NCBI GenBank assembly: GCA_965178125.1
Contig: OZ237749.1
Span: 186,001 to 250,000 of the forward strand
Reading direction: 5' to 3'
DNA: 64,000 nucleotides
Source: Bilabrum cf. latius
Taxonomy: Eukaryota
The notes below the pieces were generated by a model. It did no database searches, had not been told where the DNA came from, and saw nothing but the letters and a program-made list of their open reading frames with translations. Below, one piece after another: positions 1-64,000 of the stretch (its first letter is position 1; each line of letters begins with the position of its first letter). The position numbers were made by a program, and so were the translations under genes.

Positions 1-2087
1 TCCTCGCCGATATCAGCTGGATGCATGCTGCTCGTCAGCAACGGCCCTGTGCTGCTTTCAGGTTGGTGTGTGCGTGCATCAGTTGCAACCTTTAAAATTG
101 CCCCCAGCGCAATCCCAGGCAGGCCTGCCTCGATCAGCGAAGTGTCGCGCAAGATCACCGCGGCTTCGTCTGCAACTGTAGCGACCATGCCGGAGCTGGA
201 CGACGACCGAGATTCAGCTTGCTGTTGCTATCCAGCGGCTGCTGGAATCGATACTCCATCTCGGACAATTGTGAGCCGCTACAATTCAGCAATTCCCCGA
301 CTTCCCGCATCGTCCTGGTCAAATTTGGTCTGGTCTGTACCAGTGCATGCGATAGTCGCAGCAATTAAGCATTGCTGTACGAAGGCCTCGCCTGCCACAT
401 GCCCTCCAGCGCGCAAAAACACTCGCACAGCACGTCTCAACGACTCTAAGGAAGCTAAACTAGACTCTTGTCCGCCATGATCCCCCACCTAAAGCTCCAG
501 GAGATGCGCGCTTCCGGCAGCGGCTAGGCATGCTGCAGCACCCGGATGTAGAGACGCGTGGTTCGCGAGAACTGACAAGGTATTGTGCAGTGGCCACAGC
601 TGTTCGCTAATGGCGACTGGTGCAGGTGCATCTGATGGTGCCTGGTGCGCCTCGGAGCTCAAGGATCCTTTCCAAGCCGCCACAGCTGCTTTTAGTGCGA
701 GCCTGCTTCCATTGCCCCAGCAGCGCGAGGCGGCAAGGAGCAGACGCAGCTTGAACTGCCGTGATCTCATTGAGCGATCACGATCCAACCCTGCTCGAAC
801 GCCCGCAATAGGAAGAATGAGCTGCATAGCAACGCGCACACTAGCAGCCGCACTCAGCCCGACAGATGCCATCCGATCCCCCGAAGCCCTTCCCCCAGCA
901 GGTCCACCGGCAGGCGAGGGTGTTGGCGTCGGTGCCAACGCGTCCATCAGATGCAGCGCAACCCGTGATGCGATCATGAATTTAGGGTCATTCTGTAGAA
1001 TCTGCGCAGTCTGATCCCCTTGCCCTTCCTGACCACTCTCCTGGCCACTGGCACTGGAGCTGCCAACAGCAGCAGCAGCACCAGAGGCAGCAGCTGGGTC
1101 TTGTCCACCGCTGGCAACCGATTGTCTGCTGCCATTGGATAGCAGCACCATGGCTTGGGAAGCGACGCTTGCAACGTATGAAGGCTAATCGACAGTAAAC
1201 TCAGACGGCGGACCCCCCAGCGACTTGGTCCATACTCCCGGCCCGCCCAGTGCCACCGACTTGGCCAATCCCTCGGCTGATTTGAGCAGTGCGTCGGGCC
1301 TGAGCCCCTCAAGGGTGGACAGGCTGGCTGCTCCCAGTCCACCGGGGCCTGAGACCGTCCATCGGACTACTGATTGGGCTAGCCTTCCGTAGCACCTCGC
1401 GGCTGCGAATGCCTGTCGCTGCTGGTGCGTGCTGCGGCCCCTTTGAGGCACGCTCGGGCTTCCCACCGGGAGGGCCTGGAAGGCTGCGTGCGATCGCATG
1501 CCGGGGTCGCAGCGGAGGAGCATATGTCTTAGCTTCTGGCATGGAGAGTCCTCGCGATCCGTTCCATGGCGCGCGGCAACCCGCTCTGCTGCGTCAATTC
1601 GCTGCCAAGTCTCAGAGATGAGCAATGCCCTGACCGCGTCGGGCAGCACGGTCTTGGTAAACGACCTTTCCGGACAATTAGACACGGCAGATATGATAGC
1701 TTCGATGGTTTGATTTAAGCAATACTGCCTGTGACTTGCAGTTGTCTTTGGTGCAGCAAATGGGAAGCAGCTCTCTCGAAACCTCTGCAGCCGGGCATGC
1801 TTCCACCCTATCTTTGCTGCTGATGGCCGCTTGGTGAAGGCAGGAACAGCGCGTAGTGGAGCATTCACGTACACACATAGCAGCCACATGCAGTCCAATA
1901 CGAATATGCATGACTGCAAGGCAGTGATGTTGATACCAGTTGAGCCATCACCCTTGCGTTGTACCACAGCGGCACTGAGAGCTTCTGCAGAAGTTCTGCA
2001 TTTGTCAACCCAGCCCTTCAACCGCTCGAAGGACCATTGGTCTGATATCCGTAACTACTGTAGAATGTCATCCAATTCTTCTTGCAT
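1..2087 (-). CDS. Large Ala-rich hypothetical protein (3' end outside the window)
   Basis: ORFs 1185..2021, 489..1151 and 279..488 share one frame and are separated only by TAG (2055, 1185, 489, 279, 228). ATG at 2087 (MQEELDDIL...). The frame stays open to the window edge. TAG 228 sits in G*QQQ. Confidence 0.7.
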
Positions 2088-2190
2088 GTAGTGCGTGCGA
2101 AAAGTCCCAGCGGCGAATTGGTTCGGCAAAGGTTCTCCACGAACCACCTAAACAAGGCCAAGTGCAACAGCCAGATTTCAGCAGCAATAA

Positions 2191-3036
2191 ATGGCGTCCG
2201 TTGCGTCTATTTCGTCCGCAACAGCAGTTAAGCGCTTGCGTAGAGAATATGAGAAGATGAGAAAGGCTCCTGCTCCGGGTATATCGGCAGTGCCGAGGTG
2301 CAGTGCTTCAGGAGAGGTAAACTGGTTTACTTGGGACTGTTGCATGGTCGGACCTGTGGATTCGCCTTACGAAGATGGCATTTTTAGAGCGCTGATTGAA
2401 ATTCCACGATAGTATCCCATGATGCCTGTGAGTACTAAGTCAAGTGTACTCCCCCAGACTATTGTATCTTTGCCATCAGAGCCAATCTTTGTTTGCACGC
2501 ATTTCTCGCAGCCAAAAATGAGTTTCGTGACCCCCATATTTCACCCGAATGTATATTCAAAAGTTTAGGAGGGCGCAATGCCTGGTGAACGCCATACAAG
2601 GGGCGAAGTTTGCATATCAATTCTGAAGGCCCCCGGGCGGGACCTTTTTGGCGAGGCCCCCGAGGACACCCGTTGGCGAGCCTCTTTGTCCATCGAGGCT
2701 GTGCTTCTATCAGTCTAGTCCCTTTTGATCGATCCCAATCCGGACAGTCCGGCCAACACGGATGCAGCGACGCTCTGGCGCCGGAGCAGATCAGCATTCC
2801 TGGAGCGAGCGAGGCGCAACGTGGCAAACTCCCTCGGGCTCCGGGGCAGCCCCCCTGCTGTCCTCGTTGATGAAGTCGGCGCGCTTCCAGAGCGCGAGTA
2901 CAAGGCTCTGCTTGAGTCCGGGACGGGTGCCGGCATCAAGGCAAGGAAGGGAGGAGGTGACACGGGATTGAGCGGTACTGCTAGTGGTGGTGCGGGTGCT
3001 GGTGCTGCTCCCCGAGCCAACTTGAAGGTTGGTTGA
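2191..3036 (+). CDS. Ubiquitin-conjugating enzyme E2 (Ubc7/Cdc34-like, with an insertion after the catalytic Cys)
   Basis: KRLRRE, GPVDSPYEDGIF, IPR*YPMMP|PKMSFVTPIFHPNVY, GEVCISIL, VLLSV*SLLIDPNPDSPAN. GT-AG intron 2428..2511. In-frame TAG at 2410, 2566 and 2716. Ends TGA. Confidence 0.93.
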
Positions 3037-3123
3037 AGGCACTGCTGTCGAATTCGACTCTTCTATTCAAGTAGTACCCGCAGATCTTAACCAGATCCCC
3101 ACCAAGCTATGCACGCGGCACCC

Positions 3124-7472: not shown

Positions 7473-7626
7473 AGAGTTGGGAGTGAATGAAAATAGAAAG
7501 GCGTGGACCTGATAAAGCTTCAATTTTTTGCAGGTTTATGAGGAACGTTCACTGCGACTCAAAACGAACTTGCGCTAGAATCTACTGTTTGTAGTTGCGA
7601 GGCCACTTAGCACTGGGGCAATTGCC

Positions 7627-10452
7627 ATGCTCTCGCTAGCTTCGCTTCTAATTTTATCCGTGCTCTCAGCAAAGTCACTCTCGAAGCATATCGAGACGCT
7701 ATCTGCAATCGGAGGCGACGCAACGGAGTGCAAGTTTCGAGAACTAACATACAACTACTCGCTTATCCAGGTGGAAAACCGCGGACCCATGCTCAGTGTA
7801 TTTGATGCATTAGAACTGGACTCTATGTGCGGACTAGCGCGGCCGCCCGCTCCAACGGAGAAGCCTGAGGGCGACTGGCCACCGGTGCTGCCCACCCCAC
7901 CGGATCCATCCTCCCGCAATATTTTTGTTGATGCCTTGCATGGATCAGACAAGTCTGGAGATGGATCCATCGCGAAACCATTCCAAACGATCCTTAAGGC
8001 GGTTGAACTGTCTCGCACTCCCTCCAAGTAGCCGAGCACAGCTATTCTGCTTCGCGAAGGGATCCACCGACTCCAAGACACTCTGCGGCTCGGACCCAAA
8101 GATTCGGGATTGCGAATCCAGAACTACAACGGAGAAGCAGCATGGGTCTCAGGTGGTACACCGCTGGATCTTGGCAATGGGTGGAAACGGCACCCGGCCC
8201 CTGGCAACATCTGGTACGCAGACCTGGCGACACCCCCGGAGGACCCGATCGTGGGCCTCTTCCAGGCAGAGCCCCACGTGAGGTACATGCGGGCTAGGTG
8301 GCCAAATCCGCCCTCCGGCTCCAACGAGATCAGGCCAGTGGCCAAGGTACAGCCTGTGTCCTACCTGGCGCCCGCCTCGATCCAGCCAAAATCGGAGCAG
8401 ATCCTGGTCAACGCGACTCTCATGTCCGGGTTCGACTCGAGCACGATGTACCAGTACAACTCATACGTCAACGGCAAATGCAACCAAACCAATGATCCGG
8501 AGTGCCCGTGCGGCGCATGGACCGACATAAAGGACGGGGTGTGGACCAGCGAGTCATACTGGTGCTCTGAGTTCGCCGCGGGTGGATGGGCTGAGATGGA
8601 CCGTGGATTGGGATACTATAACGGACCCACGCTGCCCAAGGGGCTCGTGTACAACACCACAGCTGGAGGTGACCCGAGCACGGACACCTCGCGGTTCCAG
8701 AGGTACAAGAATGCAACCGGAGCAATCGTGGTGCCGTGGCGAGCCCAGGGATGGTTCAACAATTTCTACGAGGTCGACTCCCAGGACAAGGAGGCAGGGG
8801 TGCTGCACTGGTCAAAGGGGGGCCAGCAGGGCGGCAGGGGCTGGCAGATCAACTCCACGGGTGCCATCCACCCGACTCCCCCCTTCTTCATCGAGAACGT
8901 GTTCGAGGAGCTGGACATTCCGGGAGAGTACTACTACGACCAGCAGGCGCACCGGCTGTACCTATACTGGAATTCGACCTCAAACGAGCCCCCGCCGGCA
9001 TCTGCCCAGTTCTTGGCGACGACATCTGAGCTGACGCAGCTGATCGCCATCGTTGGCGGGGGCATGCAGGACCCTGTCGCGAACGTGTCGATCGCCGGGG
9101 TTGGATTCCGAGACGCCGCGATCGAGTACATGAAGCCGTGGGGCGTGCCGAGTGGCGGTGATTGGGCCCTTCACCGAGGCGGGGCCGTGTTCCTCGAGCG
9201 GACGCAGGGGACCACTGTGGAGGCCTGCTTGTTCAGGAGGGTGGACGGGAACGCGCTCTTCTTGAGTGGATTCAACCGCGATGTCGAAATTCAGGACAAT
9301 GAGTTCGTTTGGATTGGCGACTCGGCGATGGCTGCGTGGGGTTACACTGACCAGCACGATGGCAGGGACGGAGATTAGCCGAGAGGTACGCTGGTGCAGC
9401 GCAACCTCTGCCACGAGATCGGCATCATGCAGCTGCAGAGCTCCTGCTGGTTCCAGGCCAAGACAGCCACCACTACCATCAGGAACAACCTCTTCTACAA
9501 CGGTCCCAGAGCGGGTGAGTGCTGCCGGTCGCCTTGCTTGCTTGAAATGTACCGCGGTCGAGACCTACTGTGCGCTATTGTGATTTTGCATTTCATCGCA
9601 GGCATCAACCTGAACGACCATTTTGGCGGAGGAGACGACATCGACAGCAACGTCATTTTCAACCAGTGCAGGGAGTCTGGTGAGGCATTGCTCGCACATG
9701 GAGGGGATACTTATCTAATTGCTCCAGGCGTGATCATGTCAAGAAGCTGTTTGCCCATTTGTATTCAACTGATGCGTTTGGTCACCCGCTACAAGCAGCT
9801 CATACCCTTGGACCCTCACGCAGGCGACCACGGACCTATCAACACCTGGGACCGGCAGCCGTTCTACTCAGACCTGCGGGACCCCGCTGGTTCATGGAAC
9901 CCCCTCTTCTCCACCATCTCTCGCAATGTAATCATCGCGACGTATGGTTCTAGCCAGGGGGTGGATAACGACGACGGGTCCACCTGGTTTGACCTGCACC
10001 ACAACGTGGTGTACGGAGAGGGCATCAAGCAGGACTACGGGGGCCACGACTCCAAGTATCACAGCAACCTGAACCTCGTGCACAAGTATGACGGGCAAAA
10101 CTGCTTCAACACGGCGCCTTTTAAGGACGCCAAGGGGCCGTGCGGTGACTGGAGCTCCGGCCCCGCCGTGTGCTCCCATGCTCATCGCTTCGAGAACAAC
10201 ACCTGCATCGTACTGTACGAGGACATTGTCTCTCCGAATGCCGGGGGGTGCCCCCCTAACCTCGACCAGATGGTCAGGCTGCAGAACAACACGTACATGA
10301 CTCCAACAGCTGGAAACGCGACGTTCGCCAAATGCGGCAACCTCGCTGCCCTCCAGGAAGGCGGCACCTCCAAGGGGTCGCAGAGTCTTGCCCTGCCGCA
10401 GAGCGACGATATCTGGCTTGCTATTGCCTATGACCTGCTGAGCATGAAATGA
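7627..10452 (+). CDS. Secreted right-handed parallel beta-helix (pectin-lyase-fold) protein
   Basis: Signal peptide, FVDALHGSDKSGDGSIAKPFQTI, LLREGIH, RARWPN, ENVFEELDIPGEYYYD, GDHGPINTWDR, DNDDGS. ORF pieces are joined by TAG 8029 and 9376. Probable introns 9515..9601 and 9680..9823. Ends TGA. Confidence 0.85.
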
Positions 10453-10745: not shown

Positions 10746-12413
10746 TCACCACCAAAAGTTCACGCTCATCGACGGCTGTGCCCTTCTCCAAGCGTCCTGC
10801 TCCTCCGACAGCGCCTCCTTGCCCGCCTTTGTCCTCGCCATCTCCAGGGGGTCGCTGTCCTCCATGCTCAGCTCCACGGGCACTGGGAGGTCGTCGTCTG
10901 CCTCAAGCAGCGCATCAGCAGCCGCCTTGCTGCCACCCCTTGGAGACTCATACTACAGCTGCTCGATCCTGTCGGGGGACCAGATGGATCCGTCCCCAGC
11001 AGAGCAGAAGTGCCACCACTTCTACGGGATGAAGATGGCATCGCCGGGCCGAAGCACGCACTCGAACGAGGGGGCCTCAAGCACCAGGGGGTGCTGCTGC
11101 CTGACCTTGTCCACGTCCCTTGGATCCGCGCACTCGGACGTGTTCGGCTTTCTCCATTCCGCGTCTCCTACCTGGCTCACTGGGTACAGGTGCCTATCTC
11201 CCACGTCTGGCCTCCACAGCCTGCAGTACTTCTCGCCGTACACCTGCACGAGCATGTTGGGGCCCGAGTCAAAGTGCGGGTTAGAGAAGGAGGAGGGAGG
11301 GGACCACCACAAGTTGCACTGGGTGTCACCCACGGTCGGGTACAGCTCTGGCAAAGCATCGAGAGCGCCCTGAATGGTCTCCTGCTCTTCCGGCGAGAGG
11401 CTGGGCTGTTCCGTGGGCACAATGTCGGGCGAGGCCCCTGCATCCAGCAGGGCAGCGCCACCACCCATGCGGCCCAGCATGGCACGTTCTGTCTCCCACA
11501 GGCGCTTGGCCGACCCTTTGGCTCCCAGGCAGGCGGCGACATAGGCAGGCACCCACATGTCCTGCAGCAGGCCCGGGCTGACGGACCGTATATCCTTCTG
11601 GGCTAGGTACAGGCGCGGGACCGATTCCCGGAGGCGGGCGTAGTGCGCGTATCGAAACAAGTACTTCCACAGTACCGCCAATGGGATCTGGACCCTCTGC
11701 ATCCTGGATAGCTCCGAAGTCCCGCCGGGCTCGATGTGCGCGTCCCCGCGTCCCTGCAGCACCTCCTCCAGCAGCTCCGGCGGGACGTCCTCCATGCGCC
11801 ACGGGAAATCCGGCTCGCTCTGCGCGGCATCACCGCCAGTGGAATCGGAAGGAGCTGGTTCGCGGACAGGGACTTTCCCTTCCGCCTGCAGCTTCCTCAT
11901 CCTGGCATCCAACTCGAGGAGCATTCCAGTCTGGTTGTCCCGCGAGGCCGAGCGCGCCAGCGCCACAGCATCGTCATCTTCCGCTTTCCCGGCACGGGCC
12001 ATGTAATGCAAGCCTGCTTCGACTTGAGCAAACCTTGATTCCCCTGATATCCTCTCTTCGTCTTTAAGCATTCGACTGAATTCACGCCATCGACGACCGC
12101 CCCAGCTGACGGCTGGCCAAGTAGCGGATGCGCCTCGAATGACCACAGGTACTTCAGATTTTACAAATTCCTTTCGAAACTACCGCGGAGAAAACTAGCT
12201 TGCGTGTCGTTCTGGCATTGGTCTTGGAGCCACGTCAGCGCCGCTTGCTGAAGTTGATAATGTCAAGCACTGAGGCCTCTGCCGAAGCCTGCAGCTCAAA
12301 GAACGACCTAACCTTGTGCAGCATACTCTCATCCCAGAATTGTTGGGACAACTGATTGGCGGCAATTTAAATGAGTTTAAAACCGCATGCGGCCAGTGCC
12401 CCTCGTCACACAA
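10746..12413 (-). CDS. JmjC-domain 2-oxoglutarate/Fe(II) oxygenase, JMJD5/KDM8-like (5' end uncertain)
   Basis: FRKEFV..PVVIRG..WPA, HxD in SNPHFDSGPNMLVQVYGEK, LRPGDAIFIP*KWWH and terminal SMSVNFWW-TGA. The last two motifs are only reached by reading TAG 11022 and 10953 as sense. Further TAGs at 12180 and 12195. Confidence 0.85.
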
Positions 12414-12834: not shown

Positions 12835-15800
12835 TCACGAATACTCGGGATTCTGGTGCACCTCGTACCCTGGCAGGTCGGCGAGCACGTTGCCTGCGAG
12901 CAGCGCATCCGTGTACGACACGGAGGTATACCTCGCTGAAGTTTGCCTTGCATCAGGAGCAACGGATCGCCGATGTGCATATCGCCTCCGGAGGCTGCGA
13001 GAGCAAGGGGGGCAACCAACGTATCGAGGCAGGGACGCATGATGCTGGGTGAAGTGCAGCCGCATTGAGCCAGGGGAAGGGCCGGAACGGCCCGGGCATG
13101 CACACCGCACTTTGCTTCATAGTCCATGCTCGCCCGAACAGGCATGCTGCCTTCGACGCGTAGGCATGTGCCATTGCGCATCCCAGCAGCACTACACTCT
13201 CTCACTCTTTGGCATCCTGCTCTTCCTCTGAGAGAGTCTGGGGACACGTGGCCTCTTCCAGGGCAACGTAGCACCTGCGAATACCTGCGATCAGCGCGCC
13301 GAGCATTGCAGCGAGCAAACATACAATCAGCGGCAGCATGTGTCCCTTGGTCAACCGCTTCACCACAGAGAACATGCCGGGTGCATCGGCTGGCTCGGCA
13401 CTGGTCAGGAGTGCAAGCACGCTCTCGGCGTCAATGGCGCTGCTGCTATCAAAGATGCTAGAGGAAAGCGCCCAGGTGCTGAATCCTACGCGGCCCACCA
13501 ATGCAGTGACTAGGAATGGCACGAATGCGCGAGGCATAGTCCCATCCCAATGCCAGGTCGATCTGTACACCCGACAGATAAACGCCTTGTCGAGCCAGAA
13601 CGCAAGTATGAAGTTGGCCAAGGCAAACCAATTCAGCAGGGGAAGCACACCTCCGAACATGACAGCCACAAACGTCGTGTTGGTCAGATGGGCGTATCTC
13701 GCAGGCAGATCGATGGCTGGCCCGATATACAGCAGGTCCAGCTCTCGCTGAGATTCGAAGGGCTCGGCACCTGACCGGTGCCGCAGCAACCGCACGTGAT
13801 TCAAACAGAGTTGCAAAACAGGGACGAACCACGCGCTCAGTGTGTCGAGCAGCATGACTGCTTGCAGCGTGGCGCCTACGTGCCGGTACCATCCAGCCTC
13901 CACATCGCGGAACCCTTCCCCTGGCCAAACGGAACCAAGGCCTAGAGTAGAAGCGTATTGCCTTGATGCATTAACCAGTACTAGTGTACAGCAGGTATTT
14001 ATAATTTGTGTCCACGCGACTCTCTGAAACACCCTCGTTTTCATCTCAGAGATGAAGTGGGGCCGCTCCCAGGATGCCAGTCGTTGCGTGAGCTGCTGCA
14101 GGGCGACGTTCACGAACACCAGAACAAGGACCACAATGGCTCGCATTGCGGTCGCGGCGGATGATAGAGGAACGTAGCGAGCTGACTCAATTGTCGTTGA
14201 TGTTCCTGCGTCGACGCCGCTGGCCCCAGTGCCAGGCACCGACCCCTCCTCTCCTCCTGCAAGGCCTGGTGCAATCGCGTTTCGTTGCTTGACCCGGTTC
14301 TCAGTATGATGCACGCTCGCATGAATGAACACGACCACTACAGACAACATCATCAGGGCAGCATTCGCTAGACAAGAAACTCCTGCCCGCCTGCAGCGGG
14401 TGCCGGGCTGCACTGCGATGTTGTACCAGAGCACTTCGCTGGGAGGCGGCGCGCGCTGGATGTCCATGGCAACGGACTTGCGGAGCCTCCTACTGGCAGG
14501 GGTGCAACACGAATAAGAACAACATGCGCATGCTCCACCTTGAGAGCTCTGCGAGGGTTAAGTTGGACGCAGTGACGAACAGTGGATGGTCTCGGTCCTA
14601 CTTTGAGAGATTTGCTACCGCTGCAAAAGGTTCACACAGGTGACACGCAGCGGCAAGAAGGCGGGCCCACCAGGAGCTTGCCAGGGTATATTCTTGGTTT
14701 CTCTCACCTTGAGAACTCGACTAGCATCGTGCTCCTGGTTGAAGGTCACAAAGGCGACGACTGCATCGGTCCCGAGCTGGTTCGCTAGGACGTCCTCTTG
14801 GCATCTCTTGGCGTCCTGCACGAGCTGCTACCTCCTGTTCCAGAGAGATACGGCATAGTCTTGTTCCTCCTGCGGGAGCTGGTCAACTCCTAGCTGCCAC
14901 GCTAGAAGCCGAACTTCTTGCTGTAACTTGCTTAAGGCATGGACACTCGCTTGAGCCTGGGCCACCGCGTCTGCACCTGTAGCTTGATCGCTTGCGACTG
15001 GGAGAGCCGTTTGGCGCATTGCACCCGCAGAGCTAGATGCTACTACACTCTTCTCTTTACCCAGGGTTGAATCGCCGTTCACTTGATTACTGCCGAGAAC
15101 CCCATCGGCGGCACCGTGCCGGTGCTGGAGCTGCGAGGGTTCTTCAGGGGCAGCGGCCCTCCGCGCTTTGTGCGCCATGCCTCCGAGCCGCTCCTCGATG
15201 GATTCAATGTCTTGTAGCAGATTTCGCCGCGCTGCTGCTTGCCGCCAAAGATCGCCGAAGTCATACGCGATGGAGACCCGAGCTGGCCTGACGCCGTGCT
15301 GCGACTCAAAGTGCTCGGACAGCTCTGCCGCGGTGGCATCGCGGGGTGGATTCTATACAATCAGCGTGTAGTTTGATGCTGTTCTGTGCATGGCATCAAA
15401 CTCCTTCTTCTCAACTCCCAGCGATTTGGACAAGATGCACGCACTACAAGCAACTGCCATACAGCAGAGCGCCTCGAGGAGGGCAGCTAGCATGCCGATC
15501 GACTGCAGCGACATCATGCCTCCTCCCTACAGATAGACCACCGCTGATCCCTTGGTAATTCCAGTGTATCCGATGCTTGCAGGTGTTGTTCGAACCAGCC
15601 ACGGAGGGCTAGCAAGCGAGCAGGCCGCACTCGAGTTCGTCGAGACGTTGCGATGCAACGCGCTGCACAGCCCCTCCGGCTGCATCGCTGCCAAAGAATA
15701 TACGCACATGATTGGCATTGATAAGATACATAGCGCCAATGCCAGGTAGGCAAGCAATTTGTCAAGCTTCAGCAGGGCTGACAGGCCAGGGCCGAACCGG

Positions 15801-16084
15801 TCCAGGTCGGAAGCCTCTCCCCCGCCGCATGGGTCGCAGCTGCGACAGCAGTTGGGCCAGCAAAAGCGCCCAGTGGTTGAACCATACACAGAGAATGCTA
15901 CAAATTTCCCTTGGCCATCCATCTCTCGCGGATGATACATGTCTCGTACCAATGCCGCTGCCGGCTCGCTTGGCGGCGTCCAGTTCTGAATTCTCTTCAA
16001 CAGGCTATTTCCCGAGCGATTGAGAGCTTCTGACCACTGAAATCGACTATTACAGCTGGGCGTCAACCCGCATATCGACTGCAT
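12835..16084 (-). CDS. TMC/OSCA(CSC1)-like multi-pass membrane channel, multi-exon
   Basis: AFVTF and RAPPPSEVLWYN (OSCA-type), FGPGLSALLK, SQRELDLLYIGP..LPARYA, many TM helices, C-terminal YEVHQNPEYS-TGA. In-frame TAG 14828. The apparent TGA at 13202 lies in a GTGAG donor site. Exon boundaries are not all resolved. Confidence 0.72.
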
Positions 16085-16458
16085 TCTTGAAATAACCTTC
16101 CCAGCGTGGTTCTATGTGCCGGCGGCATCAGCACGAATCGAGGTGGCTGACGGAAGCCTGCCGCTGTCCCTCTTCATAGACGCAACAGCTTTGTGGACCA
16201 GAAGTAAAGCAGTTCGACGCTGTTTGTACCTGTTATCAATTCTAGCTTGAAGGTCTGGATCATCCCGAATTGGGTCCCGTACGTTCGACTACTGCTCGCT
16301 TTCGGCTGACAAGATCATGGAAGAATTACCACGAGGAAAGAACGAAAAAATGAGACTGTTGCAAATTAAGTTTTCGTTTCTTCAGATCTCTGAAGTTAGC
16401 CCCCTGGGCGCGGTTCGCATGCCAAAATTGTCGAGACGAGCGCTCTCGGTCGCCTACT

Positions 16459-38601: not shown

Positions 38602-38643
38602 ACCAAGAACGCAACACTTACTATTCTCCCCTGTTGTGGTGCG

Positions 38644-50434: not shown

Positions 50435-52461
50435 TCAAGACTCGACCCCCTCGATACCGCGCACGGGCACCACCTTCTTCCCGCGGCGCGTCCCAGCCAC
50501 CGAGCCAGACGGGATGCCTTCCCCATCCGGCCCCAGCCCGATCCCCCGGATCTCAGCCTCGCTGAATCCCTCGCTCTGCAGCTGCCTCCGGAGCTCCCTC
50601 GCCGCCCGGCGCTCCAGCAGGTCCTTCCGCATCGAATCGCGCTCCTCCTCCTCCTTGATCTGTGCCCTCTGCCGCTGCGAGAGCTCGCGCGCTGCGGCCT
50701 CCCTCTGAACCTTCTCTTGGGTCACCTGCCGGGCGTACAGGCGCTTCTGCACCCGCTTCCTCGCGGCATCCAGCGCGTCCTGTCTGTTCAGCTCGTCCTC
50801 CTCCTCCCTGAGCCGATCGATCAGCGCCTGGTCCCGCTGCTGTTCCCTGCGCTTCCTGTCCTCCTTCACGGCCATCTGTTCCTCCAGGTTGGCGCGCATC
50901 TCTTCCCGCTGCCTGATCCGCTTCGCGGCCTCCTCGCGCGCCTTCCTCCTCAGTCGCATCTCCTCCTCCTCCCAGTCCCTCCTGAGGCGGTTGCGCTCGT
51001 CCTCGTCCTTGCTCAGCGTGGCCTTGGCCGCCTTGCGGCCCGCGAGCTCCTTGATCTCGTTCTCTTCAGCCTTTTCGATCGCGGCGAGCCGAGCGGCCTC
51101 CTCTTCTTCCAGTCGCTTGCGCAGCGCATACATCTCGAGTTCTTTGTCGCGGGCCGCCTCTTCCTCTCTCTGCTACCTCTTGCGAGCTAGGAGCGCGTCG
51201 TTCAGCTGCTTCAGCTCAACCTGCGCCCGCTTGGCCTCTTCTCTCTTGATCCGCATTCTCTCCTGCCTCCGCGCCTCCTCGTCCTCCATCTGTTTCCGCA
51301 GCATGGCGCCCTCTTGGTCCTTCCTCTCCATCTCCATCACCCTCTTCTTGGCGTTTTCACGGAGCTGTCGCCGCAGCAGCTCGGCGTCCTTCAGCCTGGT
51401 TGCTCTCTTTCTCGCGTGTTCGCGCCTCTCCATGGCCGCCTGCAGTATCCTCTGCTCCTCCTCAGCGTGCGCGAAGTGCGCCTCCCTCTCCTGCTCGGCT
51501 CTCTTTTTCATCTTGACCTCCTCCAGCTGTGCCCTTCGGTCCCGCGAGACGCGGGCGGCCTGCAGACGAGAATTGACCGCCTTGACGCTATCGGTCTGCA
51601 TGGCGACTGCCATGCGAGCCGCTGCGAGACTAGGGTTGGCGGCTTCCTCCTCGTCCATGCGGCGCTCCTCGGCGAGCAGGCGAGCACGAGCAGCTGCTTC
51701 GGCGGACTGGCCCTTACGACCCCCCGCGCGGGCGTCGCCGGCCTGCAACCCGGCACGAAATGTCCTCTCGTCTTCGAGCTTTTTCATGAGCCTGATCCTG
51801 GCGGCGGCTCGCTCGGGGTCTCCCCTAGCGCGCGCCATCACGCGAGCGATGCGGCCCTCGTCCACGCCGCCAGACGGGCCGCCGGCGCTGGACGTCGTCA
51901 GCTTTTGCGATCGGCGCTTTTTCACAGTTCCAGCTGCAACTGTTTGTCTCGCATGCTCATTGTCAGGGTCAACGAGAGCCATCAAAATTGGGTCCGGCCG
52001 AGGAAGCGCTCGCATGCGCTGCCGGTCGACGCTGCTCGCGGCAGACAAGAACTGCCTCTTCGAAGAATCCCCCGTCAAGGTGTTTGGAACTGCATTCTCT
52101 GCAGAAAGCCTTGCTAGTGCCGGGGGCACTCCAAGCTCCCGTGCTGCGATTGACATGAGGAGCTTCTCTCGCTTGCCAACAGGCTCAGGTCGAAATTGAG
52201 CAAAAGCAGACGGGAAACATGAAATATGCGGAGCTCACCGGTTGTCTCGATCAGTTCTTTCTGCTCTTGTCTTTCCCTCTCTTCTTCCTGAAGCCTGGCT
52301 TGAATAGAATAAAGCTCGCGGCCACTAATAACGTTGAGCTTTCCCATGCCACGCCGCGTGCCCCCTTTCTGCGCTGCAGCGAGCCTTCGCGCCACGCCTG
52401 CGGTAGAAGGACCAGATGTATACCCAAACACGATGCTGTCACCCCCGCTTCTGAGGGACAT
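50435..52461 (-). CDS. CFAP45: Cilia/flagella-associated coiled-coil protein, CFAP45-like (trichoplein/TPH family)
   Basis: DSVKAVNSRLQAARVSRDRRAQLEE..ERKDQEG in a Glu/Arg-rich coiled coil. TAG 51173 joins ORFs 51173..52156 and 50435..51133. Probable intron near 52170-52238. Ends TGA. Confidence 0.62.
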
Positions 52462-52990: not shown

Positions 52991-55969
52991 ATGTCAAGGC
53001 TTGGATCAACTGTTGTAGTTGCAAGCAGCTCCGCAAAGGATCTCGTGGACAGCGCAGGGTCTGGATCACAGCGGCAGCTGGTAAAAATTCATTGCGGGGA
53101 TCAAAGCAGAGACTTTGATTCAAGTTTGCATGGGCTGATTGGCGAGAATCTTCGGTGTTTAGTCTTGGATGAAGCGAGGCTTGGCTCGAGCGCACCAGCT
53201 ACAGCAACTGTGGTTCTGAACCAGGTTCTGGCAGTTGGAGCCTGCCAGCGTTTAGGTCGGCTGTGCATCCGAATGACGCAATTATCTCCGGATCTCATCG
53301 CTTCGATTGCAGAGGTCCTTCAAAGTTGCAAGAGCCTTCGGTAGCTGTAGCTGCGGTCTCAAATCAACCTCAAGGTGGCAGAGTCCAAGACCATTTTTGA
53401 TGCGCTGCATTCGAACGGCAGCATCATGCACCTGGAACTCCCATCGTTTGCCGGATTCGTGGTTCCAGCGCCTGGAGCTCCGTTTGCATCCGCGGTGCTG
53501 GCTTCGCCGGTCGCGGCAAGCCTGATGGAGTATTTGAGCAGCAGGCGCTGCCAGCTCAAATTTTTCCGAGTCGTTTGCAACAACAACGACGCGGTGCTTG
53601 CGCTGAGCGAAGCGCTGCGGGCCGCGAAGAATTCGTCCATCGAGCAGCTGGAGGTGACGGTGGCATGCAAGCCGTAGGGAGGTTCGATGGCACGATTCGC
53701 AGCGGGCATCGGGCAGTGCGCGGGCCTCAAGCGGCTGTATCTATCCATTAAGGTTCCCTTCATGATGACCCTTCCTCTTGACGAGGCCGGGCGGATGCAA
53801 CTCGCCGGTGCCATCGCAGAGCATTCAACGCTGCAGTCCGTGCACCTCAATGGGATCGACTGCACCGGCGTTCTGGGCCTGATGGTGTCCGGGCCAGCCC
53901 CCCGAAATGGTGTAGCGCGCAAGGGGGCTCTGAGACAGCTCGTGCTCGACCAGGTGCTGGGCGACGATGCCACGTATATTGGCTTCTCGGAGGCGGTCAG
54001 GGCCGGGCCCCCCTCCTGCTCCTCGCTGGAGACCATCTCCTTCTCGGACCCCGAGAGCACGAATTTCGTCCATGCGAGGCTTATGGAGGGCATAGCTGGA
54101 TCTTCCACGATCAAATCCGTCCATTTGCATGACAGTTTGTTCAGGACATTCGGTGCCGATGAAGAACCTATTGACCACCTGTTCCGATCTGAACATGACG
54201 AGGAGGCCGCGCCATCACCCACGCCACGAGCCATGTGCCAGCGCAACATCCGCATCGCGAGCGCAACTCCGCCCCCAGAATTCTTCGTGTCCCTCGGCGG
54301 GAGTTTAGGGAGCGGCACAGGTAGTCTAGAGGAACTGCACATGGACTTGGCAAACCTGACTGACTCGGCCAGCACGCAGGGGCTGTGCGACGGACTGCGG
54401 GCAAACACCACGCTGCGCCGGCTGTTTTTCTGCAACGTCTAGACCGGCATTGCCACACGAATCGCTGGAGCGCTGGCCGCCAATGCCGCCGTGCGTCTCA
54501 CCCACCTGGAGATGCCGGGCCAGTGGGGTCATGACGCCGACAGCGCCTTTGAGGCAGCGGACAGCCTGGGCAGGTTGGCCGGACTGAGGCATTTGAGCGT
54601 GCAGCACGGCCTCGTGGCGGAGGACCAGGGTTACACGCTGTTCCGATCCATCGTGGAGCGATCGCGAATGGAGCACCTGGACATCCGGTCATGCGAGGTG
54701 TCTGACGGTGATTTGCAGGCACTCCTGACCAAGTGCCGTAGCCTACGGACGATAAGGATCGGCGGCATTTCTACAGAGCGGGCGCGGATCGCCATTGTTC
54801 CCGCCATGCGCGCCATCACCGAATCTACCGGCCCGGCCAGCTGCCTGAGAGAGATAGAGGTATGGATTTTCTAGCCTGCATGGCTCATGCAAGGGGATGC
54901 GGCCTCGCTGAAGAAGAGGGAGCGCAAGATCCGGAAAGGCATTTTGAGCGCAAAGCAGGAGCTGCAGGACGCGATCGAATCTGTCCCGTTCGTCACGCAG
55001 TTGCAGCCACCCGACCAAGGCGGCGCAGAGGCACCCCCTTGTAGCGGGCTGAAGAGTCCGGGGCCAGACGCGCGGCAAGCCGTCGTTGCCCGCTGGACCA
55101 GCGAGCCGGCTACCTGCTCAAGAGCTGCCGCTCTGCTGCGCATGGCGATCCATGGGGTGTGCATCACTCCCAAGGATGCATGTTTCTACGCAGCGGCAGC
55201 GCTCGGTGCTGGCAGAGACGCAGGATCCGGTGCCCAAGAGGCATCTGCGCCAGCGCCTGCAACGAGCGCTGTCGGCAGCAAGGCGTCCGATGCAGCTGGC
55301 GGTGATTGGGTCGACTCTGTTAGTCTGGCAGCGCTTCTTGATAACTTATCAGAGTGCTGCAGCCCACGGACATCAAGTTTGGACGAGGTGTCCGCGCTGG
55401 ATTGGAGGGCGGAAGGCGCCTCGATGGTCCCGGAAGAGGGATGCAGGACAGGGGCGCTGGGCTGGGGGGACCCATTGTTGAGTGCCAATGGCGATCTAGG
55501 TCCGTTCAGGCAGGCGATACCCTCAGAGGTCATTGCGGAAACAGGGGTGATGTGTGAGGCCATTCGAGTGGGTACGCATTGGCTGGGTGGAAGCACTGCC
55601 AGTGGAGATGGCCCAGCCACCGGTGCTGGAGCGGGTGCCGCTGCAGGTGGTGACACCTATGACCACGATCGTGTGGCAGAGGCGCTGCGGGGCCTCATGG
55701 CAACGCATGCGGTGCTGCATCGGGAGCAGGTCATCCGGTGGAGGCACGCATGCGAGGCACGGCGGGATGCTGCATGTGTCTTCCAGGCGGCGAAAGAGGG
55801 CCGCCCCATGGAGCTGGCAAAGAGGTTGAGGCTCGGTGCGCTGGCTGGGGGGCTGGAGATGAAGGGCGAAATGGAGGACGGGAGGGCTGTTGGGCCGCTG
55901 GAGGCTGCTGTGCTTGGGGGGCATGAGGAGTGCAAGCAGCTTCTAGAGAAGGCTGGAGCGCGGGCATAA
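52991..55969 (+). CDS. RNI-like leucine-rich-repeat protein with the shared C-terminal module
   Basis: LxxLxL repeats (SLR*L*L, GLKRLYL, SLEELHM, TLRRLFF, GLRHLSV). One frame through TAG 53342, 53348, 53675, 54440 and 54872. C-terminal AAKEGRPMELAKRLRLGALAGGL..PLEAAVLGGHEEC. Ends TAA. Confidence 0.82.
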
Positions 55970-56219: not shown

Positions 56220-59051
56220 TCAATGGAACAGGGGTGTCCCATCTGCCAGCAGCCAGGGCCGGCCAACGTCCCTGCCCTCAAACAGGTGCGACCGCACAGC
56301 GTCACCGCGGTAGTCCTCGTGCAGGTGGTCGGGCACATCATCACCGGACTCGAGCAGGCGGCCAGTCATGGGATCCTGGTTAGCAAGCAGCCGCTCCAGC
56401 ATCGTGCGCTGCACCTCTGCTTCGGACAGGTCCTCTAGCCCAACCCATTCGTTGATGTGTGGGTCCGACTCGCGGGCAGCTGTCGCTGCAGCCACTGCCT
56501 GCACACCCCGGAGCGCTTGCAGGCTCCTGCGGCGGAATACGACGGCGTTCTCATCCGCAACCGTGCGTACTCGCTGTGCCGTTGAGTAGGGTAGCTGAAA
56601 TCTGGTCGTGTTGAGGTTCATCGCGACCCACTGCATCAGAGCGCTACCGTCAAAGGTGGCCTGCGCATAGGGGTCGTCAGCAGTCATCATGGCATCCATT
56701 GCATCGGCATACGACTAGGTCGCTGGCAGACCGCACAGGAACGGGTATGTGGTCAGGTTGGAGGGAACGAAGGACGTGTTGCGCAGCGAAGGGGCCCCGT
56801 TGCTGTCCCAGATGTACCCCTCGTACCAGTTGGCCACGAAGAACTCGTCCAGGAACCACGGCACGCTGCGGTCGTAGTAGTCGTCAAACTCGCCCGTGCC
56901 CACGTGGATGCTTCCCACGAACCACTCCCTGCAGATCGACCCCGTGTCGGCCACAAACTGCACGAGCTCGTCCGATGCAGCCTCTCGAGCTGTCCTCGTC
57001 AGGCTTGGCTGCACCCTGCCTAGGGTGCGGATGGTGGGCTGAGTCTTGTAGTGAAACAGGGAGGGGCCCTGCACCAGATTCTCAGCGGAGACGAAGCCCG
57101 GGCTCCTCATGCTGATGGTGCGCGGGACGTACTCATCCGTCAGCTCGGAACTGGGCAGGAAATCGACAGATAAGTATCGTTCTGAGTCGTACGTGAACAC
57201 CATGATGCGGGCCGCGCACTCGTCACGTGATCCGATCCCCTCAACGCACCTGGAATCCACAGGGGACAGTGTGACCGTCTCTGGCCCAAACTGATTGAAG
57301 TTGTCCAAGTCTTTGGTGCCCAACAGAAGCTGGTTAGAGCAGCTCATCTGCGAGTACGACAACTTGCACTTGCCTTCAGGGGTGCCAGAATCGGGCCGAT
57401 CGTTGTGAGACGGGCTGAAGTAGTAGTCCACCGCACCGGGCAAATCTAGCAGATCTTGCCATCGGTCGCCCCAGCTGGCCACCACGTCCAAGTCCCAGGG
57501 CCTGCGGCCCCAGTTCAATGATACGGCAGTGGCATTAATCGGCGAATTCGCCCCATCCATTCCGTTGATCTCCCACGCGAAGCTGCCTGCCGCGTGAAAG
57601 CTATCGGTCGTGCGGACCTCGTCATCTGAGATGGTGATGGGGGCGGCCGTCTCCGCCTTGTAGGTCTGGTTCGCGAACGCTGGGAACTAAAACGTGGTGC
57701 TGCTCGAAGACTCCCCAGTTGCCACGACGCTGTTCCCATCCGTGTTGCGGACCGTGACGGTGGCGGTGAGCTGAGTGAGTGACTCCACCCTGATGTTGCG
57801 GATGGTGACCGTGACCATGTCTGGGCTGGGAAAGGGCGTCTGCGAAACACGAGAGGGAGAGGTGCGTCGGGACATTGGGTCAAAACGCGACGTTACTACC
57901 TGAAATAGGTCGACCATTGAGAGATTCATAAGCAAGCTAGAGGTGCTGCTCACAGGGGACGGCGATGGAGTACTGCTCGGGCTGGCCGTGATGCTTGGGC
58001 TACTGCTCGAAGTGGGCGAGGTGCTCGGGCTGCTGCTAACGCTCGAAGTGGGCGAGGTGCTCGGGCTGCTGCTAACGCTCGAAGTGGGCGAGGTGCTCGG
58101 GCTGCTGCTAACGCTCGAAGTGGGCGAGGTACTCGGACTGCTGCTGGCGCTCGAAGTGGGCGAGGTGCTCGGACTGCTGCTGGCGCTCGAAGTGGGCGAG
58201 GTGCTCGGGCTGCTGCTGGCGCTCGAAGTGGGCGAGGTGCTCGGACTGCTGCTGGCGCTCGAAGTGGGCGAGGTGCTCGGGCTGCTGCTGGCGCTCGAAG
58301 TGGGCGAGGTGCTCGGACTGCTGCTGGCGCTCGGTGTTGGGGTTGGAAGTACCGGGATGGCCCCATACTTCACGGGATCACGCCTTGGCACCGCTCGGAT
58401 GCCCGAGCCTACCGGGCCAGCGGCGAGCTACTCCTGCAGGCCTTGCTCGAGGCTGCCGTCCTCAACAGAGTCTGCCAGGGTTTCTGCCGCATCGGCAGCT
58501 TCTTGCTGGGAAGAAAACCCAACCGTTGCGGTCAACACGAAACCTTGGCCCTCGGAGCTTGGCGCGAGCTGCAGCAAAATGTCGTCGCTGTCCACTCCAA
58601 GAAGCGTCGCGATCACGGCGGTGCTGTTCTGGACGTCTCCGCACCCGATGGTCGATCCATCTGTTTCTAAGTCTATGGAGAGGGTGCTGTAGAAGCTGTG
58701 CAGGCGGTTAAAATTATCTGTTGCCTCGGTCGTAAATCCGCTGCTCGCCTGGCCGTCTGTTGTGGGGCAACCTAGTCCATCTGCCGCAGTTTCTTCCTCG
58801 GCTGTACCGATGTCCATACGCTCATTTTCTTTACCACGAAGTAGAAAAAGGGCCACTAGCAGTGATGCCAGAAGCACACACAAAAGCACGCATGCGGCAA
58901 TCCACATGCCAAAAGCACCGCGACACGATCGCTTTGACTCAGCTTTTACGTGGCGTTCAGGTGCTTCAAGCGCCTTATCCTCGTAATCACGGCTCCTGTA
59001 TTGCTTCAAAGATCCGTTTGATGAGTTCGTGGTCTAGTTTGTCCGGGACAT
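56220..59051 (-). CDS. Type II membrane/surface protein with Ser/Thr/Pro mucin-like repeats and a YfaP/DUF2135-like segment
   Basis: ATG 59051, one frame through TAG 59034, 58428, 57687 and 56715. N-proximal TM (WIAACVLLCVLLASLLVALFLL), SSSPSTSPTSSA repeats, DLDVVASW..LDNFNQFGPETVTL. Ends TGA. Confidence 0.75.
58005..58328. repeat. Coding minisatellite, 9 x 36 bp
   Basis: gctcgaagtgggcgaggtgctcgg(g/a)ctgctgct(aac/ggc) head-to-tail with no spacers. Encodes the Ser/Thr/Pro stalk on the minus strand. Confidence 0.95.
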
Positions 59052-59642
59052 AGGATTGTTCCCGGCGAAGTTTACCACGTGCGGCTCATCAGATGCTTTT
59101 TGCATCTGCGGTGGCAGGAAGCATCCAGGCAATCGTACCGTTGGCGGCGAATGTATTGATAATGGTGTGGGCTGCAAGACTCCTAGGGTCAATCTCACCT
59201 TCTACAATACACAGCTGGACCTTTTAGATGGTCCCTTGCGCTGTCGGACACGCGGCAAACTCACATTTGCACGCAACTAGAAGATTATATCAGGTCCCGC
59301 ACCACCACGCAGCCTCCGGATCTCCGGATGAATTCAAGCCTTTTTGGGGCATCATGCCGGGGATCAAATCCTTAACTTGCGGAACTAGTACCAGATGCAG
59401 AAAGTAGAAGGCCGAACTTAGGCTATTCGCTGCAGGAAATGGTCAATGAACTCGGTGATCTATTTCTCCGATGCGGAGAAAAAGCGCTGGACTGAAAGCC
59501 AGGGAACAAGAGAGAAGAGATAGTACGCATGAGGTGGACACTGCAATTTTGCGATACCAAATTAAACGGGTCCCCAAATCATATATAATTTCCAATAGTA
59601 CGATTTGGAGACTTAAGGAATCGGTAGGAGGCGAAGTATTAG

Positions 59643-61455: not shown

Positions 61456-62946
61456 ATGGATGCCAAGACGGCTGCCTTTGATCAAATGTTTGGTTAGCTA
61501 GCTACTAATGTTGGCGATATATCAGAGTTGCTTGAGAGGTTCTTTTCATTCTTGAACAGGCGAACAGACTTTTACATTGTGGACCCAACCAGATCTGCGA
61601 AGATGGGCTTCGCTCCCGGCCACGCGGAGCGTCTGTTGCTTGAAACGTTCCACAGATTCCCTTTGAAAGGGGTTGACGGCAGGGCTTTCTCGCCTGCTGC
61701 GCAGTCTGGCTCCGCTACTGCTCAGGTGTAGGCCAGCAAGGCCGCATCAGTCTCGAGAAAAGTGCTTGAGCCAAAGATCAAGCGTGCCGAAGGGACGAAG
61801 TAGAAACATACCAATTCTAACGAGGGTGCGACTGTCGGTAAAGTGCGTTGCGAGGCACCTGGGGCTACCACAGCCGCTGGAACTTCGCAGTCAGAATTGC
61901 GGCCAGGAGCCAAAGAAACCACAACCAAGGGAAAACGAGATAGCGGTAGCATAGGGATCAGCCAAGTTTGGACTACTCTCAAGCTGAAGCAGCTTCCCCA
62001 AGCGAATGGGGGTGCTGGCCCGGGATACTGGTGGTCCCAAACGATGGAAGACGTTACTTTGAACGTGCCAGTTCCCGAAGGAACGCGAAAAAAGGATGTT
62101 TCTGTACAGCTTACATCAAATCGAGTTCTTGTCGCTCTAGAGCATGACAGTGGCAGCCTGAGTGCCAGTGGCGGGGCAGGCGGTAGCGAGGTTGCGCAAG
62201 AGCCGCTCATCTTGCTGGAGGGCGACCTCGGGGGGAACGCTGCCGGCGAGGACGGTGATGAAATGCTTTGGGTCCTGGATACCAAAGCTGAAAGCGTGTC
62301 TACCGTTGAGATTGGCGGAAGCCAGGTTGCTTTCGAGGCGCTGGCCAAGGAGGCACTGCTGAGAGCGTAGGCTGCGTCTGGTGCTGGCGTCGAAGGGGGC
62401 AGCGGAAATGCAAACACCGCTCAGTCGGCAAAGGAAGCTTCAGCAGACGCCCCAATGTAGCTGGCGTCCAGCACATCCATGAGCAAGGTGCTGCAAGTGA
62501 CCATCAGCAAGTCAGAGGAGACATGGTGGAATTCCGCCGTTCGGGGTCACCCCGAAATCGATGCGACGCGCGTAGACTCCAGCAAGCACGTATCTGAGTA
62601 CGACATTGGGACATAGAGCACCATACGCAGGCTAATGGAGGACTAGGCGCGGAAAGCGAAGGGGCTGCCATCGGTGGAAGAGGAGCAGGCACAACGCGCG
62701 CTTCAGAGGGCCATGGAGCTGCCCGGCGGCTCTCCATTCGCTGGCACTGCAAGCAACGCGGCTCGGGAATAGGGTGGAAGTGACAGTGCAGCAGAGCAAG
62801 ATGATGAATCTGCGCCGGTACCCTGCTATGGGACTGGGGGCACCGTGTCTGACCCTTTGCCTGCAGGGGATGGGGGCTCCAGATCGGGTGGTGGCCGTGA
62901 TGGTGGAGCAGAGGGTGGCGATGCATTGCAAGGGGGTTCATTGTGA
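61456..62946 (+). CDS. NUDCD3: NudC-family CS-domain co-chaperone (NudCD3-like)
   Basis: FFSFLNRRTDFY..MGFAPGHAE, YWWSQTMEDV..VPVPEG, TWWNSAVRGHPEID, T*STIRRLMED*ARKAKGLPS. Eight in-frame TAG (61495, 61729, 61801, 62368, 62458, 62614, 62644, 62770). Ends TGA 62944. Confidence 0.88.
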
Positions 62947-63291
62947 GCAAGTTCTTGGGATTGCCGATGATTGGTGCTACTAGAATCCGATATGATTGGG
63001 TCAGTTCGTGTACGTGGGTCCGCCTATTCAAGCCAAGCTGCTTGGTGGCACCCAGGCACATGACAAGGGGCATGCAGATGGCTGTAATGGCACCTGGGCG
63101 TACCCATGGCTCGCACGAGCAGATAAGGATGTGTCTCGGGCGGTCCGATGGCGATGACGTGCAGGTCTGAACCACCTCGATCACCCTTCACACCGCATGT
63201 CGCCCGCGCGTGCGTGGTGGAAACGCAGTGCAGTCTGTGCATGCGGTCTGAGGTCTGGTTGGTCTGCTAGGGATGTGGGTCCCACTCGTGG

Positions 63292-63345
63292 GTGTGCACC
63301 ATACGTATCCCGTGTGCACCATACGTATCCCGTGTGCACCATACG
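63292..63345. repeat. 20-bp tandem repeat, 2.7 copies, upstream of the SRCR-like gene
   Basis: gtgtgcaccatacgtatccc x2 plus a partial copy. Confidence 0.85.
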
Positions 63346-63444
63346 GCGATTTTATCTGATTTGTTAAAGTTCCGTGCAATTTGGACACTGCGGAACTTCC
63401 AGTTCAGCCCGAAGTCGGCTGTGCATCAAATCCACTAGCTGCGA

Positions 63445-64000
63445 ATGAAAGGCGAATTTGCGCTTCATGCGGCTCTTATTGCTTCATTTGCAATTTTGAT
63501 TGTTGATGGTAGCTTGGTATTTCGTACCTCTCTACGGATCGGGCCTGGGCTTATCTATAGCGACATGAACAGTCGCAGGCCCGGAATCCTCTCTGTAGCA
63601 ATAAGAAACGGCACCTGGGGCCCAAACCTGCCGATATGTGGCGACGGATTTACAGAAGCTGATGCTCGGGAGTACTGCGTCGGAGAAGATAACGCCGGCC
63701 TTGCGAGGTTCAAGCTGGTTCCCTCGGTTAATGCTTCACTCAGCCAGACGACCATGTCCTGCGAATCAGGATCCTGCACGAATACCCTGCTGACACAGGG
63801 CTGTACATCTGGTACGATAATTGGGCTGGAATGCACCTAGGTGGATCTCGGAATTCTGAAAGAATCAAACTCGAGCGTGCCACCCCTTGATCGCGCCACG
63901 CCAGCGCGGGAGCAGCCAGCGCGAGCTCGAGGGGTCGCAGCCGTGTACTCTCTCAACAGAAACTCTTGGCGATACCTTTCAGAAGGCACATTACCGAGCG
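63445..64000 (+). CDS. Secreted protein with an SRCR-like domain (runs off the window)
   Basis: Signal peptide, GILSV..NGTWG..ICGDGFTEADAREYC and a Cys pattern. The frame continues through TAG 63838 to the window end. Confidence 0.65.

Follow-up and report, generated by a model that had tools for sequence, protein, structure and literature searches.

Do the in-frame TAG triplets that interrupt many otherwise intact genes of Bilabrum cf. latius end translation, or are they read as an amino acid? The question is raised by a stretch of 64,000 nucleotides (nt) of contig OZ237749.1 (assembly GCA_965178125.1, positions 186,001 to 250,000 of the forward strand), referred to here as the window; all coordinates below are positions within it. 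The DNA of the window is nuclear and comes from a GC-rich protist. Its G+C content is 58% overall and 54-62% along its length, and the gene set on both strands is eukaryotic by Pfam and PDB matches. The families seen include a Ubc7-like E2 ubiquitin-conjugating enzyme, NudC, a UPF1-like superfamily 1 (SF1) helicase, a giant protein kinase and a Nup85-like protein, together with armadillo-repeat, TPH-domain, JMJD5-like JmjC, OSCA/TMEM63-like channel, RCC1-like, ankyrin and leucine-rich repeat (LRR) proteins. TAG is held in frame by 14 of about 20 gene models. Frame statistics, spliced RNA contigs that keep the TAGs, and homologue columns dominated by glutamine (Gln) together make it very probable that TAG is a Gln sense codon in these nuclear genes, as a first-pass annotation of the window had proposed.

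In-frame stop codons were counted over 13,716 codons, divided among 16 coding segments that belong to 14 genes and lie on both strands; two ankyrin paralogues and the frames 37702-38496, 38512-39450 and 63127-63999 were kept out of the count. The segments contained 73 TAG, no TAA and no TGA, in agreement with the earlier estimate of more than 70 in-frame TAGs on both strands. The two off-frames of the same segments contained 205 TAG, 88 TAA and 532 TGA. TAG is therefore nearly equally common in frame and off frame, whereas TAA and TGA are excluded in frame. The less certain frames outside the 16 segments held a few additional in-frame TAGs. When TAG was treated as sense, the longest stop-to-stop frame increased from 710 codons under the standard code to 3,948 codons, and the number of frames of at least 1,000 codons increased from zero to five. 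When TAA was treated as sense instead, there were 26 frames of at least 300 codons as against 25, and the longest still had 710; with TGA as sense there were zero frames of at least 1,000 codons. The in-frame TAG pattern is far beyond chance. TAG makes up 73 of the 636 presumed Gln codons (11.5%), and this share differs strongly from gene to gene: the E2 gene (2191-3036) has zero CAG or CAA codons, all three of its presumed Gln codons being TAG, and in the NudC gene 8 of the 26 presumed Gln codons are TAG.

The protein kinase exon (17801..29641, +) consists of 3,946 sense codons and a TGA stop, and matches Pfam Pkinase (E = 2.7e-48) in two stretches. Its frame (17802-29641) contains 25 TAGs, from 18074 to 28343, and zero TAA, and the sole in-frame TGA is the terminal one. 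This count reproduces the earlier description of the exon as having 25 TAGs and no internal TAA or TGA. The two other frames hold 31 and 31 TAG, 9 and 7 TAA, and 66 and 81 TGA. An RNA joint (17715/17801) sets the exon start at 17801, and four of the TAGs lie within RNA contigs. Nine TAGs (24908 to 27995) sit between the two halves of the kinase domain, which is interrupted by a low-complexity insert of about 1,000 codons; the protein, of about 3,950 residues, is encoded by a single exon. Conserved helicase and NudC motifs likewise come after TAGs. Since conserved domains are completed only beyond TAGs, UAG must be read through.

RNA had been suggested in the first-pass annotation as the place to look for editing of these codons. 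Four of ten available public sequencing runs (X1, X5, X6 and X7) were compared, as assembled contigs, with positions 1-20000 of the window. Runs X5, X6 and X7, from two studies, were treated as RNA because their contigs are spliced; X1 is DNA-like and colinear with this region. The X5, X6 and X7 contigs showed nine GT..AG or CT..AC joints that were absent from X1. The introns removed were 84-159 nt long with a median of 94 nt, close to the earlier figure of about 90 nt. Eighteen in-frame TAGs lie inside RNA contig pieces (17 in X5, five in X6 and seven in X7), and no base differences were listed between contigs and window. In the E2 gene, the 84-nt intron was spliced out in all three RNA runs and all three TAGs were retained. 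Because the spliced contigs keep TAG with no base differences, RNA editing, unrecognised introns and assembly error are argued against for the 18 RNA-covered sites.

To leave no residue favoured, homology queries were translated with X at each TAG. The NudC gene (61456..62946, +) matches Pfam Nudc_N (E = 1.4e-18) and CS, ends in TGA and has TAGs at 61495, 61729, 61801, 62368, 62458, 62614, 62644 and 62770. Its columns were read from 158 homologues, 10 of them in a first small alignment and 148 from a full-library search. Gln was present in 143 of 148 aligned rows at TAG 62614 and in 120 of 146 at TAG 62644 (Glu in 12), and was the most frequent residue at TAG 61495 (23 of 104). Both C-terminal columns had Gln in 10 of 10 rows of the small alignment. 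The UPF1-like SF1 helicase gene (32797..37371, +) matches Pfam AAA_12 (E = 3.4e-25) and AAA_11 (E = 3.1e-15) and PDB UPF1 (E = 3e-26), and also ends in TGA. It has TAGs at 34513, 35566 (DEAS-TAG), 36004, 36343 and 36682 (PYRD-TAG-V), and 31 homologues were used for its columns. At TAG 36682, in the PY..Q motif, Gln was found in 25 of 28 rows; the two further TAGs of this gene covered by the search were aligned in only 2 and 3 rows. Log10 likelihoods summed over five usable columns were -1.65 for Gln, -7.65 for Glu, -7.82 for His and -7.89 for Lys, placing Gln about 10^6-fold ahead of the next residue.

The Gln enrichment of TAG columns for which the first-pass annotation had called was observed in the strongly conserved columns, and two of its proposed conserved Gln positions, SPYRD-TAG-V in the helicase and MED-TAG-ARK in NudC, were upheld. 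The coordinates that it gave were all correct, with TAG found at 36682 (SPYRD-TAG-VYAV), 62644 (LMED-TAG-ARKAKG), 35566 (YIIVDEAS-TAG-VQQNQ) and 2716 (LLSV-TAG-SLL). At 228 and 29981, CTA on the plus strand is TAG on the minus strand (AAAG-TAG-QQQ and HEECVR-TAG-LE, respectively).

We then considered which codons serve as stops. TGA ends 13 gene models, three of which are RNA-supported (E2, 7627-10452 and RCC1-like) and ten further, and no gene model needs TAG as a terminator. The sole convincing TAA gene end is that of the LRR-ankyrin gene, at 55967-55969. Across this TAA, the 80-codon coding score changes from +12.6 upstream to -10.0 downstream, and the 83 codons that read-through would add score -10.0. 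Repeat-like sequence lies on its 3' side, and the end of the convergent gene (56220) is 250 nt away. A second TAA, at 38494, closes the frame 37702-38496, a candidate gene. In TGA-delimited frames, TAA with coding-like sequence on both sides was found only at 14560 and at several positions antisense to the kinase gene. The TAA at 14560 was rejected as an in-frame sense codon: it is the only TAA in the OSCA/TMEM63-like reading and lies inside the RNA-confirmed intron 14549-14707.

The A/G third-base ratios of other codon pairs range from 0.14 (TTA/TTG, the lowest) to 0.93, with CAA/CAG at 0.31. At ratios of 0.14 to 0.31, 10 to 23 in-frame TAA would be expected if TAA encoded Gln, versus none observed in 13,716 codons. 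UAA has probably been kept as a stop. Because TGA and TAA end the gene models, and TAA never occurs in frame where at least 10 would be expected, we have high confidence that the code matches NCBI table 15, with UAG as Gln, UGA as the usual terminator and UAA probably kept as a stop.

Several observations weigh against this reading. At helicase TAG 35566, the 20 nearest homologue rows have Lys in 11, Gln in six, His in two and Asp in one. The earlier assignment of DEAS-TAG to Gln is thus matched by solved UPF1, which has Gln there, but not by most of these rows; the Lys rows are kinase-helicase fusions. In the E2, TAG 2410 is opposite Asp, and TAG 2716 is opposite Met, Met and Val in the three closest solved E2s (Ubc7/UBE2G2), so that the claim of a conserved Gln at 2716 did not hold; TAG 2566 falls in an insertion relative to solved E2s. 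Two TAGs of the JMJD5-like gene are opposite His and Val in a PDB alignment with one human protein only, and a word-based homologue search with the JMJD5-like protein gave no match. Five of the eight NudC TAGs lie in poorly aligning linkers with no Gln signal, and most TAGs of the window are in variable or low-complexity columns that give no such signal either. At the site matching TAG 29981, the ankyrin-type paralogue that had been cited in agreement does carry Gln (HEECVAQLE, confirmed at 40235-40261 on the minus strand), but the other two carry Leu (HEECKQLLE) and Val (HHDCMLVLV). The variable-column TAGs of the E2, JMJD5-like and ankyrin genes neither support nor contradict Gln. Metagenome scans with the TMEM63-like C-terminal exon and NudC as queries found no orthologous loci of close relatives.

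Other points concern the RNA and the stops. The RNA support spans 1-20000 only, assembled contigs can drop rare variants, and the label of RNA for X5, X6 and X7 is a guess. The zero count of in-frame TAA is partly circular, the frames having been bounded by TAA and TGA, and there is just one convincing TAA gene end. The earlier statement that UAA is still a stop is thus probable, on a thin base of gene ends. NudC TAG 62770 lies about where the homologues end. Finally, ARAGORN detected zero tRNA genes in the window, an Rfam scan of it returned zero families and hence no rRNA, and no eRF1 gene was seen among its Pfam-scanned frames; the decoding tRNA, eRF1 and glutaminyl-tRNA synthetase (GlnRS) are unseen in the window.

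These points bear on the rival explanations in different ways. UAG could have a dual, context-dependent meaning, standing for Gln within genes but for termination towards the 3' end of some. Such double use of UAR or UGA is on record from Condylostoma, Parduczia and Blastocrithidia. NudC TAG 62770 would fit such a role, being 15 codons past the conserved PGGSPF, near the ends of several homologues and followed by low-complexity sequence. However, sequence weakly resembling the LP.G motif at the end of the homologues is seen beyond this TAG, conserved domains lie downstream of TAGs in the helicase, NudC and kinase, and all gene models reach TGA or TAA without TAG; we consider a dual meaning unlikely. 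A code of the NCBI table 6 type, with UAA and UAG both Gln and UAA merely too rare in a GC-rich window to be met, we judge quite improbable. It does draw on the base composition, the G+C content at third codon positions (GC3) being 0.67 and TAA being the rarest stop triplet in the window (245 on the plus strand), and on the single TAA gene end. In addition, excerpts of a 2017 survey state that UAA and UAG change together in most known cases (PMC5304391). Yet none of the 10 to 23 in-frame TAA expected was seen in 13,716 codons, although TAA is common off frame (88 in two frames). TAA read-through never links two coding-like stretches, the apparent case at 14560 being intronic, and the 83 codons past TAA 55967 score -10.0.

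There is very little room for UAG as a sense codon for another residue such as Glu, Lys or Leu. Lys in 11 of 20 rows at helicase 35566, the mixture of Gln, Leu and Val at the ankyrin site and Asp opposite E2 2410 would be compatible with it, but the three strongly conserved columns have Gln in 143 of 148, 120 of 146 and 25 of 28 rows, and Gln is about 10^6-fold likelier than Glu, His or Lys over five columns. We attach next to no probability to TAGs that are not translated as such, whether through pseudogenes, unrecognised introns, assembly errors or RNA editing. No point supporting this was found, with RNA contigs compared over 1-20000 only. Against it, 18 TAGs are present, with no difference listed, in spliced contigs of three runs that come from two studies, the DNA-like run X1 agrees with the window, TAA and TGA are wholly excluded from the same frames, and TAGs occur inside conserved motifs.

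If UAG encodes Gln and UAA is a stop, cytoplasmic ribosomes would read UAG as glutamine. By analogy with the excerpted account of Panek et al. (PMC5304391), UAG would be decoded by a tRNA-Gln(CUA) that is one mutation from tRNA-Gln(CUG). CUA should be the only anticodon that reads UAG without UAA, as it would be unable to pair with UAA. On the same analogy, eRF1 would have lost efficient recognition of UAG and would still recognise UGA and UAA (PMC5304391).

The remaining genes of the window are described in order. A gene of unknown family at 3..2177 (-) leaves the window at its start and has a 725-codon frame only when TAG is sense. Its TAGs are at 2148, 2055, 1185, 489, 279 and 228, and an RNA contig (1-2081) with no differences spans five of the six. 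The Ubc7-like E2 gene (2191..3036, +) matches Pfam UQ_con (E = 1.1e-33) and PDB Ubc7/UBE2G2 (E = 3e-32). It has exons at 2191-2427 and 2512-3036 separated by the 84-nt GT..AG intron, TAGs at 2410, 2566 and 2716, and a TGA stop. Its RNA contigs begin 2-6 nt before the ATG and finish 4-6 nt past the TGA; contig ends are not transcript ends. Gene spacing is very tight on both sides of the E2, at 2081-2191 and 3036-3047. An RCC1-like gene is convergent with the E2, with RNA contigs from 3047 and a TGA stop after splicing by RNA joints. At 4925-6020 (-) is a Pro/Gly/Ala/Tyr-rich low-complexity gene with no TAG and a TGA stop, which had the top RNA contig depth in 1-20000. A GH43-like gene at 6216-7472 (+) is covered by RNA contigs and has one TAG in an in-frame upstream extension. 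It has no Pfam match, the Atlas clusters closest to it are from bacteria (Acidobacteriota and others, 0.95), and it may be of bacterial origin.

A second gene of unknown family, at 7627..10452 (+), has TAGs at 8029 and 9376 and a TGA stop after splicing. Its introns, at about 9514-9600 and 9679-9822, are RNA-confirmed (contigs 7599-9513 and 9823-10625, with joints). Within 8119-8916, a contig with short sides that links 8141 to 8887 is present in each of X1, X5 and X6, and loose ends occur at 8119, 8844 and 8916; this pattern suggests that the gene has a second allele or a paralogue elsewhere. The JMJD5-like JmjC/cupin gene (10749..12332, -; Pfam Cupin_8, E = 1e-20; PDB JMJD5, E = 7e-16) is a single exon ending at TGA 10746-10748. 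An RNA contig (10740-12352) with no differences spans all four of its TAGs (12195, 12180, 11022 and 10953). The OSCA/TMEM63/anoctamin-like membrane protein gene (13202..16318, -) has weak Pfam matches to PHM7_cyt and Anoctamin and an Atlas value of 0.93 to an anoctamin-domain cluster. It carries TAGs at 16289, 16112, 15527, 15353 and 14828, the RNA-confirmed intron 14549-14707 and a TGA stop. At 16500-17340, the depth of X1 climbs from 17 to 34-52 and its assembly consists of many short contigs; this rise and fragmentation suggest a repeated element.

Past the kinase gene, an ankyrin-type paralogue tail at 29855..30100 (-) contains TAG 29981. Its paralogues are at 40106-41185 (-), at 42115-43017 (-) and in the tail of the 52991-55969 gene (55600-55969), and the four tails have a ...EGRPMELAKRLRLG... 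block in common. G+C content is lower (0.52) and long frames are scarce at about 29650-32750 and 39450-44650. The Nup85-like gene (44950..48840, +; Pfam Nucleopor_Nup85, E = 5.3e-6) has TAGs at 45112, 47245 and 48361 and a TGA stop. An armadillo-repeat gene (48900..50243, -; Pfam Arm, E = 6.2e-18) has TAGs at 50142 and 49878; its 3' end is provisional, because its frame overlaps the tail of the Nup85 gene. It is followed by a TPH-domain coiled-coil gene (50435..52156, -; Pfam TPH, E = 2.2e-22) with one TAG, at 51173, and a TGA stop. The LRR gene with the ankyrin tail (52991..55969, +) has TAGs at 53342, 53348, 53675, 54440 and 54872 before its TAA stop. The Ser/Thr/Pro-repeat gene (56220..59105, -), probably encoding a secreted protein, has a 1,037-codon frame only with TAG as sense (TAGs at 59034, 58428, 57687 and 56715) and ends in TGA. 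At 57300-57800 on the minus strand it contains a long tandem Ser/Pro/Thr repeat with units like SSSPSTSPTSSA.

In what lineage does this code occur? Among the NudC relatives whose names were looked up, all seven with a resolvable taxon were stramenopiles (MAST-3, MAST-4, Cyclotella, Discostella, Pinguiococcus, Phytophthora and Ochromonadaceae). One MMETSP row was left uncounted: its printed taxid, 87120, is that of a basidiomycete and is probably truncated or mislabelled. A NudC maximum-likelihood tree (64 rows, quick search) placed the query in no supported clade, and Atlas returned only broad taxa, Ciliophora and Bacillariophyta, for the TAG-free frame of the TMEM63-like gene, of the stramenopile-alveolate-rhizarian (SAR) type. 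The organism is probably a stramenopile. Because the taxon-resolved NudC relatives are all stramenopiles, it clearly appears to be neither a ciliate nor a fornicate, in line, as regards ciliates, with the first-pass annotation. The same annotation had called it a flagellate; the sole hint of this in the window is the TPH-domain protein, and we do not adopt the term.

Changes of the nuclear code are rare, and still fewer of them uncouple UAG from UAA. Excerpts of two papers give about seven lineages with such an uncoupling: Iotanema, Protocruzia and two phyllopharyngeans, to Gln, and exLh, Scotinosphaera and one uncultured ciliate, to another residue (PMC5304391, PMC11687900). The UAG-only change to Gln in the fornicate Iotanema spirale was reported by Panek et al. 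2017 (PMC5304391). As here, UAG is Gln with UAA and UGA as stops in nuclear genes of a free-living protist, by inference from conserved Gln columns (PMC5304391). UAA is the primary stop of Iotanema, whereas TGA ends 13 models and TAA one in the window. Iotanema is moreover an anaerobic metamonad known from a transcriptome only (PMC5304391), in contrast to GC-rich genomic DNA, introns of 84-159 nt and stramenopile relatives in the present case. McGowan et al. 2024 (PMC11687900) described a change of UAG alone to Gln in Protocruzia tuzeti and in two lineages of phyllopharyngean ciliates, which have the same table 15 code as here (TAG as Gln, TAA and TGA as stops). These are ciliates, whereas the window shows no ciliate-like feature and its NudC relatives are stramenopiles. 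An independent origin is implied, since those table 15 users are ciliates and the relatives found here are stramenopile-like.

In systems with table 6, UAA and UAG both encode Gln; excerpts of PMC5304391 name ciliates, dasycladalean and other ulvophyte algae, hexamitid diplomonads, oxymonads and Amoeboaphelidium. The change from stop to Gln is alike, presumably via a mutated tRNA-Gln, but UAA is also sense in those systems, whereas in the window no TAA was met in frame over 13,716 coding codons, and one gene or more stops at TAA. UAG encodes Leu in the rhizarian exLh (PMC5304391) and Ser in Scotinosphaera (PMC11687900), with UAA as a stop. UAG is uncoupled from UAA in both, as here, but the residue differs, the conserved columns of the window being Gln.

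No stramenopile appears among the lineages with non-canonical nuclear codes in the Fig. 4 legend of the 2017 survey (PMC5304391). Full-text literature searches, with most subscription journals outside their reach, found no report of a nuclear code change in stramenopiles. The suggestion that this reassignment is undescribed agrees with these searches, but it cannot be proved. It is a real but still tentative possibility that stramenopiles show here their first nuclear stop-codon reassignment, an independent change of UAG alone to Gln in which genes end mainly at UGA and not at UAA. If so, the reassignment would be already far advanced, because TAG accounts for 11.5% of Gln codons, and for every one of the three in the housekeeping E2 gene.

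Annotation of the genome under the standard code would truncate or split most of its long genes. The case combines genomic DNA with public DNA and RNA runs, in which the tRNA-Gln(CUA) and the adaptations of eRF1 and GlnRS predicted by Panek et al. could be sought. If true, the stramenopile reassignment would add a case from a branch of its supergroup in which no change of the nuclear code has been reported, and would indicate that a UAG-only change is not tied to AT-rich genomes.

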